A stretch of DNA of 61,710 bases, taken from assembly GCA_964402785.1 (NCBI GenBank), contig CAYODQ010000005.1, positions 1 to 61,710 on the forward strand. The letters run 5' to 3'. This document shows positions 75 through 61,654 of this stretch, piece after piece. The stretch's first letter is position 1. Every line of letters begins with the position of its first letter. Under the pieces are notes generated by a model. It made no database searches. It saw only the letters and a program-made list of their open reading frames with translations, and was not told the origin of the DNA. Made by a program: the position numbers and the translations under genes. Origin of the DNA: an uncultured Planctomycetia bacterium. Its GTDB lineage: Bacteria > Omnitrophota > Gorgyraeia > 2-02-FULL-51-18.

Positions 75-136
75 GCATCCATGACTCGTTTTCACAGTAT
101 ATGAAAAGAATTCATCGTGGCGAAGACGAGTCTTGC
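75..136. ncRNA. Candidate structured motif, copy 1 (GACTCG/CGAGTC stem enclosing an ATGAA-loop-TTCAT hairpin)
   Basis: 37/43 nt identical (manual alignment of 75-116) to 35299-35341; both copies carry a downstream CGAGTC partner. Confidence 0.4.
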
Positions 137-281
137 TTAAGGCTCAAATGACGGAAAGCGCCCTCGGAGGGACGTTAAATCGACGAGCGAGGAGATTTCC
201 GAGCCCGATTTTTCTCGGTGGGGAAAATCGGGCGGTCCTGGAGAGGGTGCTTTCCGGCATTTGAGATTGAATCAAGACTCG
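127..281. repeat. Long imperfect palindrome H1 immediately 3' of folD
   Basis: Arms CGAGTCTTG/CAAGACTCG (127-135/273-281) and CTCAAATGACGGAAAGCGCCCTC/GAGGGTGCTTTCCGGCATTTGAG (143-165/243-265); apical GCCCGATTTT..GAAAATCGGGC. Confidence 0.85.
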
Positions 282-282
282 G

Positions 283-1110
283 CTATTTGGAAAGTTTATT
301 TTGGCGATTATGGAGACGAATGAGATTTTTGATCAGGGTGATGTTAGTGACGGGGCCGACACCGCCGGGGACTGGGGATATAAAAGATGCGCGAAGTTTG
401 GCGCTTTCGAAATCGACATCTCCCACGATCTTATTGCCCAGCATATTTTCACCCACATCGATGACGATGGCGCCTTTTTTGATCCATTCACCCTTAACGA
501 GATGTGCTTTCCCTGCCGCCGAGACCACGATATCCGCTCTTTGAATATGCGATTTGAGATCCCGCGTTTCTTTCTGACAAACCGTGACCGTTGCATGCCG
601 GTCCATCAAAAGCACCGCTGTGGGCTTGCCAACGATATCGCTGTGCCCTATCACAACAGCATCCAATCCAACCAAACTCTTATGCGTTGCATCCAAAAGT
701 GTCATGACGGCATTGGCTGTGGGCGAATAAACACCAAAATGACTTTTTAAAAAAGTGCGCCCCTCGACATCTTTTAGCGGATGGAGATTTTCAAAAACAT
801 TGGCATGGCTGATATGGCTGGGTAGCGGGGCGAACACCAGGATTCCGGTAATTTTTTTATTATCATTGAGAGAGGATATCTCGCTGATCAATTTTTTTTC
901 AGAAACTTTGGCGTTGAGCCATCTGGCTTCCAGGCGGATATCGATCTTGGCAAGCATCTTCTGTAAATACGTTTCGTAGACGCGGCTATCGGGCGCATCG
1001 CCGATACGTATGGTGGCAAGCGTCAGTTTGTTTTTTAAAGTTTTAAGTTCTCTCAGCGCAAGATCAAGCTCTTTGTCCGCCAATGCTTTGCCATTTAAGA
1101 TCACAGCCAT
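283..1110 (-). CDS. folD: Methylenetetrahydrofolate dehydrogenase (FolD family; cyclohydrolase residues substituted)
   Basis: KDVEG, GHSDIVGKP, DIVVSAAGK, IVIDVG, GDVDF, PVPGGVGPVT motifs. Confidence 0.95.
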   Translation of the reverse strand: MAVILNGKALADKELDLALRELKTLKNKLTLATIRIGDAPDSRVYETYLQKMLAKIDIRLEARWLNAKVSEKKLISEISSLNDNKKITGILVFAPLPSHISHANVFENLHPLKDVEGRTFLKSHFGVYSPTANAVMTLLDATHKSLVGLDAVVIGHSDIVGKPTAVLLMDRHATVTVCQKETRDLKSHIQRADIVVSAAGKAHLVKGEWIKKGAIVIDVGENMLGNKIVGDVDFESAKLRASFISPVPGGVGPVTNITLIKNLIRLHNRQNKLSK

Positions 1111-15519: not shown

Positions 15520-16482
15520 ATAAGGTGTCAGTCCTTGACATTTGACACCTTGGCTTCGAGGACCTCAATAGATCTTTCAAGATGCCTGTCCTTTTCTAAC
15601 TTCGCTCTCATTCTGCGCGCAATCTGAGACACGGCAGAATGCGATATTTGAAACATATCCCCTATTTCTCTTTGTGTTGTTCTGGCATACTTGGTAAGCA
15701 TATATATCTGTTGGTTCTTAGGGTAACCTTGGCACAACCGAACAATATTTGCCAGAGGTCGCTGAAAGATCCTTTTTCTCCCCTGAAAGTCTATCTGAGT
15801 TTTATTTGAGATCTTGGTCTTCACTTTATTTAAAAAATCCTCGCTACCCAGGATAGCACCACCTCGAGCGTTTTTTAAAATATCTTGTTGGTCGTTTAGT
15901 CCCTCAAGCACAAAGCTGCGGTACATAGCAGACGATTCAAACTGGCCCAGCGTAAAATCTTTATGGAGAAAATTGGGCGACTTCTCCTTCAGATAATAGC
16001 GCATACTGGAATATTCATGATCTTCCGGATATTTGGTAAGCTTTGCCTTGACCGGATTCAGATGAATATACCGACTCACCTGCAAAAAATAAGCGTCTTT
16101 ATCAACCAAGAGAGCCTTGTATCTTCCCTGAAAAAGGTGACCAACTCTCTTATGTCTGCGGTTAAAACGCTGTGTATAAAGCCCAAGAAGACGCTTCATG
16201 ATATATGAGAGATTGGGATCTTTGGTCTCAATGAGAATATGAAAATGATTGGGCATGAGAGAGTATGCGTGGACAAGGAAATTGTAGGTCAAGGCAGAGT
16301 CGCTGAGAATATCTAGAAAAAGGTTGTAATCGTGGGCCGATCGAAAAATAGACTTACGTTCATTTCCTCGGGAGAAAACGTGGTAGACGGCGTCCGGATA
16401 CTCGATTCGCAGTGGGCGACCCATGCTAGTAAAGTAACATTAATAACGAGCATGTGTCAAATGTCAAGGACTGACACCTTAT
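15520..16482 (-). mobile_element. HUH Y1 transposase element bounded by perfect 29-bp terminal inverted repeats
   Basis: ATAAGGTGTCAGTCCTTGACATTTGACAC at 15520-15548 and its exact reverse complement at 16454-16482. Confidence 0.9.
15528..16424 (-). CDS. RAYT/TnpA-Y1 HUH tyrosine transposase with C-terminal HTH
   Basis: YHVFSRGN, LMPNHFH (HUH), GHLFQGRY, YIHLNP (catalytic Tyr), YSS, C-terminal HTH (TQREIGDMFQISHSAVS). Confidence 0.93.
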   Translation of the reverse strand: MGRPLRIEYPDAVYHVFSRGNERKSIFRSAHDYNLFLDILSDSALTYNFLVHAYSLMPNHFHILIETKDPNLSYIMKRLLGLYTQRFNRRHKRVGHLFQGRYKALLVDKDAYFLQVSRYIHLNPVKAKLTKYPEDHEYSSMRYYLKEKSPNFLHKDFTLGQFESSAMYRSFVLEGLNDQQDILKNARGGAILGSEDFLNKVKTKISNKTQIDFQGRKRIFQRPLANIVRLCQGYPKNQQIYMLTKYARTTQREIGDMFQISHSAVSQIARRMRAKLEKDRHLERSIEVLEAKVSNVKD

Positions 16483-17639: not shown

Positions 17640-19605
<1,966 letters not shown>

Positions 19606-19627
19606 TGATTTCTCCTTTGATAAATGT

Positions 19628-19683
19628 TTAGCACTCACCTGACTTGAGTGCCACTATTCTACACACCCGGCTAGGAATGTCAA
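19628..19683 (-). promoter_or_regulatory. groESL promoter (TTGACA-N16-TAGAAT) and CIRCE operator (HrcA)
   Basis: TTAGCACTC-N9-GAGTGCCAC at 19628-19654, just downstream of the -10 box. Confidence 0.9.
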
Positions 19684-19687
19684 GTCG

Positions 19688-19919
19688 CAGAGTGTAGCTG
19701 GTGATCAATTTCGCTTTCGCCCACCCTTACCCTTTTTACTCCCATTGAAGGCTCTCTAAATATCTGGGGATGCCCCTCGCCAAAAATTACGGATAGGCCT
19801 TTGTGGCCTATCCTGATAATTATTTGGCGTCTCCCCAGAGAATTTAGAGAGCCTTCAATAAGCGGTCGTAAAAAGGCCGGGAATGGTCAAAAGCGAAATT
19901 GATCACCAGCTAGATTCTG
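19688..19919. repeat. Long palindrome H3 (~230 bp)
   Basis: Perfect 23-bp arms 19695-19717/19890-19912 and 18-bp arms 19744-19761/19842-19859. Confidence 0.92.
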
Positions 19920-19923
19920 AGAG

Positions 19924-20208
19924 TATGCATCCTAGCGGCAAGATATATTGATCTTGTTTGTTCCCGGCCTTTTCCGAGCGCCTATAGCTTTGTCATAAAT
20001 GGCAATGGAGACGCCAATCCGAACGAAGTGAGGGCTAGAAGTCCCATTTGCCGCCGCACGAGTAGATGCAGGAGTTCCTTCGGCGGCAAACGGACTTTTG
20101 GCGAGCCTGCCTGCCGGCAGGCAGGGGTCCATGCCATTTATGACAAAGCTATGCGAGGAAAAGGGTAAGGGCAAACAAGATCAATATATCTTGCCGGCGA
20201 GCATGCAT
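19924..20208. repeat. Long palindrome H4 (~285 bp) with nested 20-bp CCTGCCTGCCGGCAGGCAGG
   Basis: Perfect 25-bp arms 19936-19960/20172-20196 and 21-bp arms 19984-20004/20132-20152. Confidence 0.92.
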
Positions 20209-20212
20209 ATTT

Positions 20213-20959
20213 TTAAATCGCTAAATACGTGAGGCGGAGGCCGTCCATGGTGAGGTTGGGGTAAATCTGCTGGATGGACGGGCAGTATTTTTTCATGAAA
20301 GAGGCGTATCCGCCGGTGGCGATGATCTTGGGGTTGCCTCCGAGATCTTTCGAGACTTCTTGGGTGAGGCGCTCGCAGAGGCCGCCGATGCCGTAGGAGC
20401 AGCCGATGCGGATACTTTCGATGGTGTCGCGGCCGATGCGGGATGCCGGGTGTTTAAGTTTGGTTTTGGGAAGAAGTGCGGTGCGCTCAAAAAGGGCATC
20501 CAAACTAATTTCAATTCCGGGGGCTATCACTCCACCCAAATACTCCCCTTTTTTACTCACCACGTCGAAAGTGATCGCGGTACCAAAGTCGATAATGATC
20601 ATGGCTTTTTTATGAAGACGATAGCCGGCCAAGGCGTTGAGAAGACGATCCATGCCGACTTGCTTGGGGTTTTTGTAGCGGTTTTTGATGGGTACGGCCA
20701 CATCTGATCCGGCCACAACAACGCGCCCGGTCACAGATTTTTTAAAAAAAGATCTTAATTTTTGCGTGACACCTGGCACCACGGAACCAATGACCACATC
20801 GATGTCTGGTGTTTTTTTAAGTTGAGACACCAGCTGAGCAGGAATGCTTTTTTTAAAATCACTGGTTTTGATCCGAAGAAAAGGCTTCCAGCCATTTTTA
20901 TAAAGCGCCATGTACACGCTGGTATTCCCCACGTCCACCGCCAGAAGAGGTTTTGTCAT
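20213..20959 (-). CDS. coaX: Type III pantothenate kinase
   Basis: AVDVGNT, GMDRLLN, IIDFGTAITFD, GGVIAPG, ATGG; start moved to MTKPLL (ATGA overlap with birA). Confidence 0.96.
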   Translation of the reverse strand: MTKPLLAVDVGNTSVYMALYKNGWKPFLRIKTSDFKKSIPAQLVSQLKKTPDIDVVIGSVVPGVTQKLRSFFKKSVTGRVVVAGSDVAVPIKNRYKNPKQVGMDRLLNALAGYRLHKKAMIIIDFGTAITFDVVSKKGEYLGGVIAPGIEISLDALFERTALLPKTKLKHPASRIGRDTIESIRIGCSYGIGGLCERLTQEVSKDLGGNPKIIATGGYASFMKKYCPSIQQIYPNLTMDGLRLTYLAI

Positions 20960-21933
20960 TTGCTGGATCTCCTTAAATGCTGTACGTCGCCCGATAAAAC
21001 TTTTTCCAGGATACCCGTGTCGGTGCGCACCCAAAGCGCACCGTCTTTATCGATGCCGCGAGCCTCGCCCTGAAGTGTACGCCCCAAAAGCGATACGGAC
21101 ACGCGTTTGCCGGTGGTCTCGGAATAACTTTCCCATTCCTCAGCCAATTTCTCAAATCCGCCGGATTTAAAAATATCCAGATCATGCTCCAACTCAGCCA
21201 GGATCGCTTGCAAGATCTTGACCCGCGGCTGTTTGGCGCCTGCGATCACCGAAAGCGACGTCGCGGTGTCTGGAAGCTCGTCCTGCGCGCTATTGATATT
21301 AAGCCCAAGACCGGCCACCACAAAATGAATTTTATCCGCCTCGGCGTTCATCTCGGTTAAGATGCCACCCACTTTTTTTTCACGATACAAGAGATCGTTG
21401 GGCCATTTGACGCCCAAGCTAACATCGGTAAGACGCTTCACAGCGCGCACGGCAGACAATGCCAGGATAAGCGTGATCTTGGCCACATCGGAGGGCGCCA
21501 CTTGAGGCCTCAAAAGCACCGACATCAGAAGATTTTTGCCTTTGGGTGACACCCATTCGCGCCCGAGGCGGCCACGGCCTTTTTTTTGATGCTCGGCAAG
21601 CACACAGCTGCCTTCGGGAGAGCCTTGCTCACCCAGCTTCCACGCTGCGATATTCGTCGAGTCCAAGCTCTCATACGAAAAAACCCGCTTTCCGATATAT
21701 CTCGTCTCCAAACCATCCATAACCTCATCGGCAAACAATTTATCGGGCACTGATATCAGCTGGTAGCCGTCATGCGGATGAGAGTCGATGCTATAGCCCA
21801 TCTCGCGGAGGCTTTGAATTTCTTTCCATATAGCAGCACGCGTGACGCCGCATTTCTTGGCGACGGATTCACCAGAAACGTATACCCCCATATGTTTTTT
21901 TAGTTCCTTGAGAAGAATGTCCTGTGTTTTCAT
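20956..21933 (-). CDS. birA: Bifunctional biotin--[acetyl-CoA carboxylase] ligase/repressor
   Basis: N-terminal HTH ([18 protein letters not shown]), [21 protein letters not shown]. Confidence 0.97.
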
Positions 21934-35085: not shown

Positions 35086-35299
35086 CAACCTTTGATACGA
35101 AAGCGCACACAAGCCGACAAGGGATATCTCCCTTCGGATACGCCTGCCTGCTGGCAGGCAGGCTCCGAGGCCCCTGCGAGGCCTCTCGCTTCTCGGGCTC
35201 CTCGGCTAAGTTAAAACCAACCGTTCCCTGCGCCTCGTCGTCCCGGGACTCCTCTGGGAGATATCCCTCGGCTTGGGATGCTTTTCTTATGAAAGGTTG
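35086..35299. repeat. Long palindrome H5 with nested CCTGCCTGCTGGCAGGCAGG (35143-35162)
   Basis: CAACCTTT/AAAGGTTG, CAAGCCGA/TCGGCTTG and AGGGATATCTCC/GGAGATATCCCT arms. Confidence 0.88.
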
Positions 35300-35401
35300 T
35301 ATCCGTGACTCGTTTACCCAGGTATATGAAAAAAATTCATCCTTTATGCTCGTGTTTTGGAGGATTTTGTTTCGTATGATGCGGAAGCGAGTCATGAATA
35401 C
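35299..35401. ncRNA. Candidate structured motif, copy 2
   Basis: GTATCCGTGACTCGTTT...AAGCGAGTCATGAATAC stem enclosing ATGAA/TTCAT; homologous to 75-136. Confidence 0.4.
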
Positions 35402-35428
35402 AAGCCACTGATTCTAATAAGCATCTAA

Positions 35429-35583
35429 AGTAAACCGATAAGGGGTATATCCGTAGGGAGTCTCGAAACCCCGGAGACGCACGGAACATCTATTTTTTTT
35501 ATAGCCGACGGGGTGAGATGAGCGAGGTGCCTCGCAGGGGCACCGGAGTGAGTCCGTAGGGGAATGCCTATTGGGGGTTTACT
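35429..35583. repeat. Palindrome H6 (AGTAAACC...GGTTTACT), same family as H5 but inverted
   Basis: 35504-35563 aligns with the minus strand of 35135-35206 once the 20-bp insert is removed. Confidence 0.8.
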
Positions 35584-35597
35584 GCGTACTTATTTGG

Positions 35598-36002
35598 TTA
35601 TGCTTGTATTCCTGAGGAGCCGTTTATCATGTCGAATTTTATGGAGTGCATGAAGACGACAGTGTAGATGTGTAGATTTTGGACGACGTAGAAGCTGCCG
35701 ATGACTCGGTATATCATTTGGCCGACACCGGTTTTATTATCGAATATTTTTTTGATGGATACATGGCGGTCTTTTTTGGCCCCCATGACTTTTTGTGTCT
35801 CCATCCAATTGTTGAGCTGGGTTGGATCCTGTGATTGATTTTGCTCAAAAATATAATAGGAAAATTTCTTTTCTGCCCGGGCTGTCATGCCACCTTGGTC
35901 GATCAGTTCGACGATCGAGAGGTTGCGTCTTTTATGGTTCACGGACTCTGTCTGCTTGATACATATTTCGCGCATTTCACTCACCCTAAAGTTATTAAAC
36001 AT
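35598..36002 (-). CDS. Hypothetical (orphan) protein
   Basis: 134-aa ORF, co-directional with neighbours; no motif recognised. Confidence 0.65.
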   Translation of the reverse strand: MFNNFRVSEMREICIKQTESVNHKRRNLSIVELIDQGGMTARAEKKFSYYIFEQNQSQDPTQLNNWMETQKVMGAKKDRHVSIKKIFDNKTGVGQMIYRVIGSFYVVQNLHIYTVVFMHSIKFDMINGSSGIQA

Positions 36003-60388: not shown

Positions 60389-61654
60389 ATGAATGCAGAA
60401 ATTATCTCCATCGGCACCGAAATTTTGATCGGATCCATCACAAATACCAATTCCCGGTATTTGTCAGAAAAGCTTGCCCTAAACGGAATCGATGTGTTTC
60501 GTCACACCACCGTCGGTGATAACTTGCGCAGACTGATCCAAGTATTTGAAGAGGCATCCTCTCGGGCGGATATCCTTATTACATCCGGAGGCCTTGGCCC
60601 CACTGAAGATGACATCACAACCCTGGCGGCCTCGCAATTTTTAGGCAAAAAACTTGCTTTGCATGAACCCACGCGCGAGGCCATAAGTTTGAAACTCAAA
60701 AAACTGGGCAAAAAAATTTCCCCGCTTATCGAAAAGCAATGTTGGTTGCCTTCCGATTCAATTATTTTTCAAAATGATAACGGAACGGCTCCTGCTTTTT
60801 TATCTCCTGTGATTCGCAATCAAAAAAAAGTTTGGCTGCTTTGTTTGCCTGGACCACCGCGAGAGCTTCAGCCGCTTTTTGAGCAGAAAACTTTGCCTTA
60901 CCTGATCAAGCGCCTGGAACTCAAGCACCAAACATTTCAGATCCGTACACTTAAGATCTATGGCACGGAATCATCGGTAGCAGAAAAAGTTGGCGATCTT
61001 CTTAAATTAAAACCTCCCGTCACCCTGGGGATCTATGCCAAGCCGGGTCTCGTTGAACTTAAAATCATGAGTAAGGACGTATCCACCAAGAAAACTACTA
61101 CCCATGTCACGCGATTGGAAAAAGTCATTCGTCAGCGTCTAGGGAGCAATGTGTACGGAGTCGATAATCAAACCATGGCAGATGCTCTTGGTACGCTCAT
61201 GACTAAGAACCACCTCTCCCTCTCTGTAGCAGAATCTTGCACAGGCGGCTTATTGGGGCATGAAATCACGCAATTCTCTGGAGCATCGAAATTTTTTAAA
61301 GGCTCCGTTGTGGCTTATGCCAATGAGGTAAAAGAAAATCTACTTGGTGTATCCAAAAAAACGCTCAGCGCTCATGGTGCCGTCAGCGAAGCTGTGGCAA
61401 GATCTATGGCAGAAAATGTGCGCCTTAAATTTGGAACAGATTACGGCATCGCGATCACAGGAATAGCCGGGCCTGGAGGCGCCACCAAAACCAAGCCCGT
61501 TGGACTTGTTTATATCGCAATATCCTCCACTCGCGGAACACAAGTCACTAAAAATTTATTCATGGGTTCGAGGACGGAGATCAAACAGCGCGCAGCTCTA
61601 AAAGCGATGGATCTCCTTCGCCTCCTACTCACCAAGAATCCACCCCTCGAATGA
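60389..61654 (+). CDS. cinA: CinA competence/damage-inducible protein (MocF + PncC NMN deamidase domain)
   Basis: IGTEIL, GGLGPTEDD, LPGPPRE, AESCTGG, ITGIAGPGG. Confidence 0.96.
   Translation: MNAEIISIGTEILIGSITNTNSRYLSEKLALNGIDVFRHTTVGDNLRRLIQVFEEASSRADILITSGGLGPTEDDITTLAASQFLGKKLALHEPTREAISLKLKKLGKKISPLIEKQCWLPSDSIIFQNDNGTAPAFLSPVIRNQKKVWLLCLPGPPRELQPLFEQKTLPYLIKRLELKHQTFQIRTLKIYGTESSVAEKVGDLLKLKPPVTLGIYAKPGLVELKIMSKDVSTKKTTTHVTRLEKVIRQRLGSNVYGVDNQTMADALGTLMTKNHLSLSVAESCTGGLLGHEITQFSGASKFFKGSVVAYANEVKENLLGVSKKTLSAHGAVSEAVARSMAENVRLKFGTDYGIAITGIAGPGGATKTKPVGLVYIAISSTRGTQVTKNLFMGSRTEIKQRAALKAMDLLRLLLTKNPPLE

Follow-up and report, generated by a model that had tools for sequence, protein, structure and literature searches.

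Throughout the genome of an uncultured Omnitrophota bacterium, genes that end close to long hairpin-forming repeats carry, over their last ~150 nt, a coding strand that is rich in C and poor in G, and this composition goes with the repeats, few other operon ends showing it. In our judgement, the chances are about even that these tails are C>G tracts resembling Rho-utilisation (rut) sites that synonymous codon choice has built into terminal genes, and that they are coupled with REP-like hairpin repeats.

C-Rich Gene Tails in the Analysed Window

The genome consists of 77 contigs (2.05 Mb, 47.6% G+C), for which our own gene calls gave 1745 genes, and the window analysed here is the whole of one of them, contig C5 (61,710 nt). 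The assembly is ~91% complete, with contig breaks falling at repeats, and the genes of the window lie almost entirely on the minus strand. An imbalance of G and C in gene ends abutting long palindromes had been noticed in a sequence-only reading of this DNA, and all six of its hand counts were exact on recount. The plus strand in 20231-20480 has 97 G and 49 C; as coaX lies on the minus strand, it is the coding strand that is C-rich in this interval.

The maximal C>G segment of coaX extends over 255 nt (20229-20483), with 100 C and 49 G on the coding strand. The coding-strand GC skew of the last 249 nt of the gene is -0.287, which ranks fourth lowest among 1123 gene ends and falls at the 0.1 percentile of 24,658 coding windows (mean +0.085, sd 0.105). 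The switch to C-ending codons described for coaX was borne out as well. The third positions of its last 50 codons are A8 C28 G9 T5, with A/C/G/T proportions of 0.19/0.36/0.19/0.26 outside them; third-position G+C rises from 0.49 to 0.77 toward the tail, and the shift is mainly synonymous.

The other tails of the window and the repeats that adjoin them are listed in Table 1. The C>G segment of folD (217-355) runs on into the adjoining repeat, and the last 36 nt of the cinA tail (61613-61648) are very C-rich, with 19 C and 2 G. A further tail belongs to a 134-aa ORF (35598-36002, minus strand) for which no family match was found in Pfam. The possibility that the repeats themselves extend into the genes was ruled out, since the BLAST matches end before the stop codon. 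No repeat matched an Rfam family.

The repeat behind coaX, palB, is present in ~14 copies in the genome, and its apex holds a 20-bp perfect palindrome, CCTGCCTGCCGGCAGGCAGG, at 20106-20125. This is the sole part of palB with matches in other genomes: it was found in 27 of the 61 genomes searched, including its own, i.e., in 26 of 60 relatives, and in many of these 26 it occurs in multiple copies. The C-rich 5' flank of palA is the antisense strand of the groES start. At the palA apex (19791-19813, minus strand), a 9-bp GC-rich hairpin followed by GTAATTTTTG resembles an intrinsic terminator in the coaX/groES sense.

Table 1. Genes, C-rich tails and adjoining repeats in the window.
Feature	Position	Strand	Remarks
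pal0 hairpin repeat	124-284	-	Abuts folD stop, folD sense; 17 genome copies
folD C-rich tail	283-432	-	Last-50-codon third positions C22, G3
folD	283-1110	-	Pfam
groES	19309-19638	-	Pfam
groES promoter and CIRCE operator	19628-19683	-	TTGACA-16-TAGAAT at 19683-19656; CIRCE, TGGCACTC-N9-GAGTGCTAA, at 19628-19653
palA, second long hairpin repeat	19670-19936	+	Convergent with palB
palB, long hairpin repeat	19924-20209	-	Begins 3 nt past coaX stop, coaX sense
coaX C-rich, G-poor 3' tail	20213-20483	-	Base counts, third positions, orthologues
coaX (type III pantothenate kinase)	20213-20959	-	Pfam
birA	20956-21933	-	Pfam
pal35, composite hairpin repeat (386 bp)	35163-35548	-	49 nt past stop of 134-aa ORF
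C-rich tail of 134-aa familyless ORF	35598-35780	-	Last-50-codon third positions C26, G3
cinA	60389-61654	+	Pfam
cinA tail	61505-61654	+	Skew of -0.22 over 150 nt, a moderate C excess
Start of a repeat copy ended by the contig edge	61655-61710	+	15 BLAST matches in genome

Association of the Tails with Long Inverted Repeats

Inverted repeats were scored in every stretch downstream of a gene in the whole genome. This gave 64 long inverted repeats, which begin between -6 and +134 nt from stop codons, mostly at less than 50 nt; they are multi-copy extragenic palindromes close to stop codons and in this respect are of the REP type. At the 28 gene ends with a long inverted repeat at most 150 nt away, the last 150 nt had a mean skew of -0.18 and a GC3 skew of -0.415, compared with +0.09 and +0.08 at the 1310 other gene ends (Mann-Whitney p = 4e-12 for skew and 2e-12 for GC3 skew). 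The genome-wide comparison of skew and GC3 skew that the sequence-only reading had proposed thus ties C-rich tails to long palindromes, and they are not specific to the window.

In metagene profiles of palindrome-adjacent ends, GC3 skew ranged from -0.3 to -0.64 across the last ~150 nt and had faded by ~240 nt. Within the tract, C at third positions rose to as much as 0.50 and G fell to as little as 0.11, and codon positions 1 and 2 were shifted too over the last 60-90 nt. Operon-internal ends were flat, other operon ends showed a slight dip, and gene ends at contig breaks, which mainly represent truncated repeats, had the C-rich tail too. A skew of -0.2 or lower was found at 51% of palindrome-adjacent ends versus 5.7% of other operon ends (~4.6% after excluding ends before other repeat copies) and 0.75% of operon-internal ends. 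The 57 gene tails that are strongly C-rich by this threshold comprise 26 that precede repeats and ~31 without an element. Several other of the most extreme gene ends adjoin copies of the palindromic repeat families of the window, and long multi-copy families had a mean tail skew of -0.23 versus -0.06 for short or low-copy palindromes (p = 0.0016).

Since the skew goes closely with the repeats and few other operon ends show it, tract and repeat are truly linked, and this link needs an explanation. It had been suggested that Rho would be favoured if every operon end had the same skew; given how seldom it occurs at other operon ends, this rule does not decide the matter.

A scan for windows with an excess of C on the sense strand, regardless of gene ends, was diluted by giant repeat-rich genes. 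Many of the strongest such windows away from gene ends lie in giant ORFs of 3-7 thousand codons (C6:37317-51998, C25:19923-30089, C23:23232-32858, C9:15167-35767 and C13:31-21900), in which the excess of C may reflect a repeat-rich protein composition.

Orientation of the Repeats and Their Flanks

The repeats are oriented, in that BLAST comparisons to a reference copy score well on one strand only, and in the pal0 and palB families all 16 gene tails flank the element on its 5' side, with none on its 3' side. Read along the strand of the element, the upstream 150 nt have a skew of -0.23 to -0.28 and the downstream 150 nt of ~+0.05. The 5' flank is skewed whatever it encodes, by -0.21 where it is a gene tail, by -0.26 where it lies antisense to a gene start (n = 8) and by -0.16 elsewhere. 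The elements are C-rich on their own strand as well, and their leading arm is pyrimidine-rich, often beginning with (CU)n; (CT)3 or longer occurs within 60 nt past the stop in 9/24 versus 10/350 cases.

Gene starts adjoining palindromes showed a weaker mirror image of this pattern, with a GC3 skew of +0.22 versus +0.04 over ~120 nt (p = 0.0015; p = 0.009 versus operon-start controls). Convergent element pairs are frequent, such as palB/palA between coaX and groES, or pal35 with pal0 elsewhere, and these pairs put a C-rich inward strand on both sides, which gives the appearance of a miniature origin. The sequence-only reading had described the strand running into a palindrome as C-rich and G-poor. 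The C-rich tail is real, but there is no true symmetry, since the skew belongs to the 5' side of an oriented element only. Additionally, the skew tracks gene direction whichever DNA strand the gene is on (-0.236 and -0.229), and the two members of convergent gene pairs both show it; thus, replication direction is not its cause.

Base and Codon Composition of the Tails

At the four-fold degenerate sites of tails (the final 150 nt ahead of long repeats), C amounts to 0.617 (background 0.27-0.30), G to 0.118 (0.25-0.29), T to 0.129 (0.26) and A to 0.136 (0.18). Two-fold codons of the tails have a C/(C+T) of 0.62 versus 0.32 in the background if Y-ending, and a G/(A+G) of 0.21 versus 0.44 if R-ending. 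Hence, C is gained from A, G and T alike, G is avoided and GC3 is raised, in a genome in which coding strands overall are 52.2% purine and have a skew of +0.085.

These values bear on the first of the two explanations offered in the sequence-only reading, according to which the palindrome is a centre of recurrent nicking, resection or exposure of single strands that biases substitutions strand-asymmetrically in its flanks. A footprint of this kind would agree with a skew that decays from the palindrome and touches all three codon positions, the third most, as well as with the mirror-image skew of gene starts. However, deamination can only reduce C, and when exposed DNA is deaminated or oxidised, it is C or G that declines and T or A that increases; as C rises in the tails at the cost of all three other bases, deamination is not the cause. 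An origin-like or deamination footprint would consist of a symmetric switch with a loss of C and a gain of T, and what we found is a one-sided change with C gained and T lost, the effect being confined to the 5' side of each oriented element and the mirror image arising from convergent pairs. Moreover, identical, hence recent, copies already have C-rich neighbours, C-rich tails exist without palindromes, and short palindromes have little or no effect. Judged by the substitution pattern, a mutational footprint is already largely refuted, and we consider it very improbable.

Even less credit can be given to an effect on translation, in which the tails would be clusters of translationally preferred codons adjusting the pace of ribosomes as they approach the stop codon and the hairpin. 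The highly expressed groEL and groES genes do favour C at four-fold (0.41-0.49) and Y-ending sites (0.58-0.62), but the ribosomal-protein cluster favours T (four-fold T 0.37, C 0.23) with a G/(A+G) of 0.52, and groEL retains a G/(A+G) of 0.45, so that the tails, with their low G/(A+G) and a four-fold C of 0.62, are unlike highly expressed genes. Optimal codons were ruled out by this comparison with the ribosomal-protein cluster and groEL. A tblastn search of the whole genome with a conserved EF-Tu segment gave no convincing tuf gene, the best matches having 34-36% identity.

The density of YC dinucleotides in the tails is 60% higher than elsewhere (0.177 versus 0.105), and the tails are predicted to fold weakly (-28 versus -39 kcal/mol in controls of equal G+C, p = 8e-7). 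A predicted lack of structure, the strong depletion of G at all codon positions near the repeat, and leading arms rich in C and T would also be expected if selection acted on the correct folding of the repeat RNA, and not on Rho: the removal of G upstream would keep the pyrimidine-rich leading arm of the hairpin free until its partner arm is transcribed. We find this unlikely, as it accounts for the loss of G but not for the gain of C from A and T at four-fold sites, and as a tail rich in C would be a competitor for pairing with the G-rich trailing arm. Tails and elements showed no specific tendency to be complementary to each other or to avoid it (z -0.47), by which base-pairing between the two was ruled out as well.

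Tails and Repeats in Related Genomes

In a genome search and a metagenome scan, no relatives with more than 57% protein identity were found. The gene order coaX-groES-groEL is conserved across the family, and a CIRCE operator lies shortly past the coaX stop in 20 of 26 related genomes, usually after a TTGACA-type promoter. The -35 box shares bases with the coaX stop codon in several relatives, which leaves no space for a terminator between the two operons there. No long palindrome was found near coaX in the 14 relatives checked. In the genome studied here, ~570 bp made up of two repeats are inserted between the coaX stop and the retained groES promoter, which with the CIRCE operator forms the far edge of the insertion.

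The coaX tail is the most C-rich of 27 orthologues, with a skew of -0.30 versus a mean of -0.03 (sd 0.13); the tails of the two closest relatives are at ~-0.25. The hldD tail (-0.53, with zero G at 50 third positions) is the most extreme of 21 orthologues, those of the 20 relatives having a mean of -0.17, and the lpxB tail (skew -0.24, GC3 skew -0.71, four-fold C 0.89) is the most extreme of 15, the corresponding values in relatives being +0.03, +0.03 and 0.40. As extreme tails were picked in our genome and then compared with their orthologues, these ranks do not speak for rarity, but they do show that the tails are not protein-driven: the comparison with orthologues that had been called for thus finds that the tracts are not imposed by the encoded proteins.

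In four relatives, hldD is followed, within ~250 nt or less, by an inverted repeat with arms of 25-50 nt that belongs to an unrelated family, and in these the tail skew is -0.33 to -0.43, compared with ~-0.12 on average for hldD tails without such a downstream repeat. The hldD orthologues with downstream inverted repeats in other genera are thus an independent replicate of the link between tail and repeat. In most relatives lpxB ends against a convergent gene, and the only one sharing the C-rich lpxB tail is G003. This member of another genus has a GC-rich repeat motif of its own, GCGCCGGATGCCGAGGCATTGCCC, behind hldD and lpxB, both of which have C-rich tails (loci L167:1-400 and L144:1049-1248, with an inverted repeat in L144). 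A further repeat family, AAATCCCCCCTGCCCCCTTTCAAATAAAAAGGGGGT, is found behind the same two genes in G012, where the lpxB repeat has a neighbour that is not C-rich. In G014, which has one long inverted repeat in 400 kb and served as a negative control for three genes only, none of the coaX, hldD and lpxB tails is C-rich. Taken together, these comparisons show that the tracts are lineage-specific synonymous recodings tied to repeats in several genera, and the orthologue data point to a local co-evolution of tracts and repeats.

As to the order of events, existing tracts may be where repeats insert or endure, or a repeat may arrive first and a tract be selected afterwards. Element copies that are 90-100% identical already lie beside C-rich tails, and no trend with copy identity was seen; together with the C-rich tails that are free of repeats, this points to repeats settling behind existing tracts. 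The same observations would suit an explanation that is centred on the element and dispenses with Rho, namely that mobile MITE- or REPIN-like repeats integrate in one orientation beside pre-existing C-rich DNA, or persist only there, so that the skew would reflect where the element prefers to insert or is tolerated, and would not be a signal in the gene's service. In support of that, more than half of the strongly C-rich tails are free of elements, the 5' flank has its C excess regardless of what is encoded there, hldD tails are mildly C-rich family-wide, and the groES start beside palA does not differ from those of 21 relatives without the element. Five genes for Y1 (IS200/RAYT-type) transposases in the genome would also be in keeping with it. 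Nevertheless, we regard this explanation as doubtful. It explains neither the origin of the C-rich tails nor their six-fold excess at operon ends compared with the inside of operons, the palindrome-poor G014 has none of the three tails C-rich, and no transposase is known to us whose target is a compositional feature of 150 nt. We rejected a connection of the repeats with the Y1 transposases, as none of the five PF01797 genes lies within 3 kb of a long palindrome. One of these genes is in the window, as a 298-aa ORF with a Y1_Tnp domain (15528-16424, minus strand), and the other four are elsewhere in the genome. The 5' part of the gene in the window (16151-16400) is unusually C-rich on the sense strand.

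Discussion

According to the Rho reading of the tails, the last ~150 nt of terminal genes, which are written in C-ending codons, and in A- rather than G-ending ones, would give a rut-like unstructured mRNA that leads straight into an oriented, hairpin-forming repeat of 150-400 nt. At the gene end, RNA polymerase would outrun or leave the ribosome, Rho would load onto the exposed C-rich tail and the leading arm, and polymerase would be released by Rho in or just past the repeat. The long hairpin could serve as a pause site, or as a cap protecting the 3' end against exonucleases, as E. coli REP elements do, and convergent repeat pairs would halt transcripts from both sides. We infer the action of Rho at the tracts from their sequence. 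A canonical rho gene with its RNA-binding domain, for which the sequence-only reading had advised looking, is indeed present (a 426-aa open frame at ~28.9-30.2 kb of contig C1, with a PF07497 match of 120.9 bits).

Several findings from other bacteria are consistent with this reading. Stretches of more than 150 nt with an excess of C over G define Rho targets in B. subtilis, synonymous recoding alone suffices there to create Rho termination, and genes are purine-rich, which lets them escape Rho when polymerase outruns ribosomes (PMC13323073). The rut sites of Rho-dependent terminators are ~100 nt long, pyrimidine-rich, G-poor and unstructured (PMC12350095). The tracts described here are like the rut sites and C>G bubbles of E. 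coli and B. subtilis (PMC12350095, PMC13323073) in being C-rich, G-poor and unstructured tracts of ~100-150 nt, rich in pyrimidine dinucleotides, upstream of the putative termination, and in that synonymous choice alone can create such a target. They share with them a C-rich, G-poor stretch of ~80-150 nt, with low predicted structure, YC anchors and an encoded Rho. They differ in that they are depleted in T, lie inside the translated last ~50 codons, and are tied to one class of repeats while being rare at other operon ends.

The second explanation of the sequence-only reading, that of synonymous Rho-utilisation tracts, thus fits every sequence test that we ran, but the RNA in question is translated, and rut sites are expected in untranslated RNA, whereas the tract occupies the last ~50 codons of real genes. 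Ribosomes would cover a translated tract unless transcription and translation are uncoupled, and the tracts would be compatible with rut function only if transcription outruns translation. The depletion of T in the tails also counts against Rho, as T-richness helps the Rho of B. subtilis. Moreover, most operon ends without a detectable intrinsic terminator (375 of 439) have no C-rich tail, and tail skew is the same with or without an intrinsic terminator, as judged by a crude finder. If the tails are a Rho signal, either only a minor share of ends makes use of it, or rut sites are normally located in other places. C-rich neighbours are missing from some repeats, namely those of short families and the one behind lpxB of G012, and the C-rich flanks that are antisense to gene starts fit a rule centred on the element better than gene-centred termination. 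As for intrinsic termination by the repeats themselves, only 3 of 35 palindrome-adjacent ends passed a crude test for a hairpin followed by a T-tract.

The repeats invite comparison with the REP/BIME elements of E. coli, whose hairpins terminate transcription in part, depending on Rho, and cap the mRNAs that Rho has terminated (bioRxiv 10.64898/2026.03.23.713779; PMC6061677). Like the repeats described here, these are multi-copy extragenic palindromes just past stop codons that lack a U-tract, are often paired in alternating orientation, and are linked with Rho-dependent 3' ends (PMC6061677; bioRxiv 10.64898/2026.03.23.713779). Contrary to REPs, which are short units of 20-40 bp with a conserved tetranucleotide head, the present repeats are 150-400 bp long, lack such a unit and head, and form several unrelated, genome-specific families; REPs themselves have no C>G skew and are not reported to go with a recoded upstream gene. 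In REPIN/RAYT systems a Y1 transposase gene is flanked by repeats, whereas here no repeat was found beside a Y1 gene. With MITEs and REPINs in general, the repeats share being gene-less, multi-copy, near-identical and intergenic, and breaking the assembly at contig ends; in contrast to them, no target-site duplications or mobilising enzyme were identified. To our knowledge, a 150-nt compositional flank is not a target feature of MITEs or REPINs.

Purine bias as a protection against Rho (PMC13323073) is alike in that the content of the sense strand decides on the action of Rho, and the genes of the present genome are purine- and G-rich. What we describe would be the local inverse, a lapse of this protection at the ends of terminal genes, which is not found in that work (PMC13323073). 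Gene tails recoded beside hairpin repeats were not found described in the literature searched. As a tentative extension, the hairpin repeats and the C>G tracts may perhaps form a co-evolving system, in which either mobile hairpin elements would home to the dead zone behind Rho-loading tracts, or survive nowhere else, with Rho termination setting the niche of a selfish element, or the repeats would be portable halves of Rho terminators whose arrival drives the synonymous recoding of the last ~50 codons. Either way, the result would be an inverted 'purine code', a second informational layer at gene ends, that arose independently, with unrelated repeat families, in several Omnitrophota genera.

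Recent work indicates that Rho shapes genome-wide base composition and codon usage, as genes must avoid resembling Rho targets. If the Rho reading is true, the tails would be the natural counterpart, i.e., genes whose synonymous recoding attracts Rho to their extreme 3' end, and would exemplify strong selection on synonymous sites that is unconnected to translation. They would also offer a sequence-only route to Rho-dependent terminators in uncultured bacteria, and a mechanistic link between hairpin repeats at gene ends and termination, a question long debated for the REPs of E. coli and one that concerns a type of repeat abundant in Omnitrophota.

A caution for gene finders would follow as well, since recoded tails can mislead them in that an antisense frame appears coding. 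A 115-aa antisense ORF within coaX (20360-20707, plus strand) was rejected as a real gene: it has no family, and its frame turns the C at third positions of the sense strand into G at first positions. It nevertheless passed for coding under the codon model, and in the initial gene calls it took the place of coaX.
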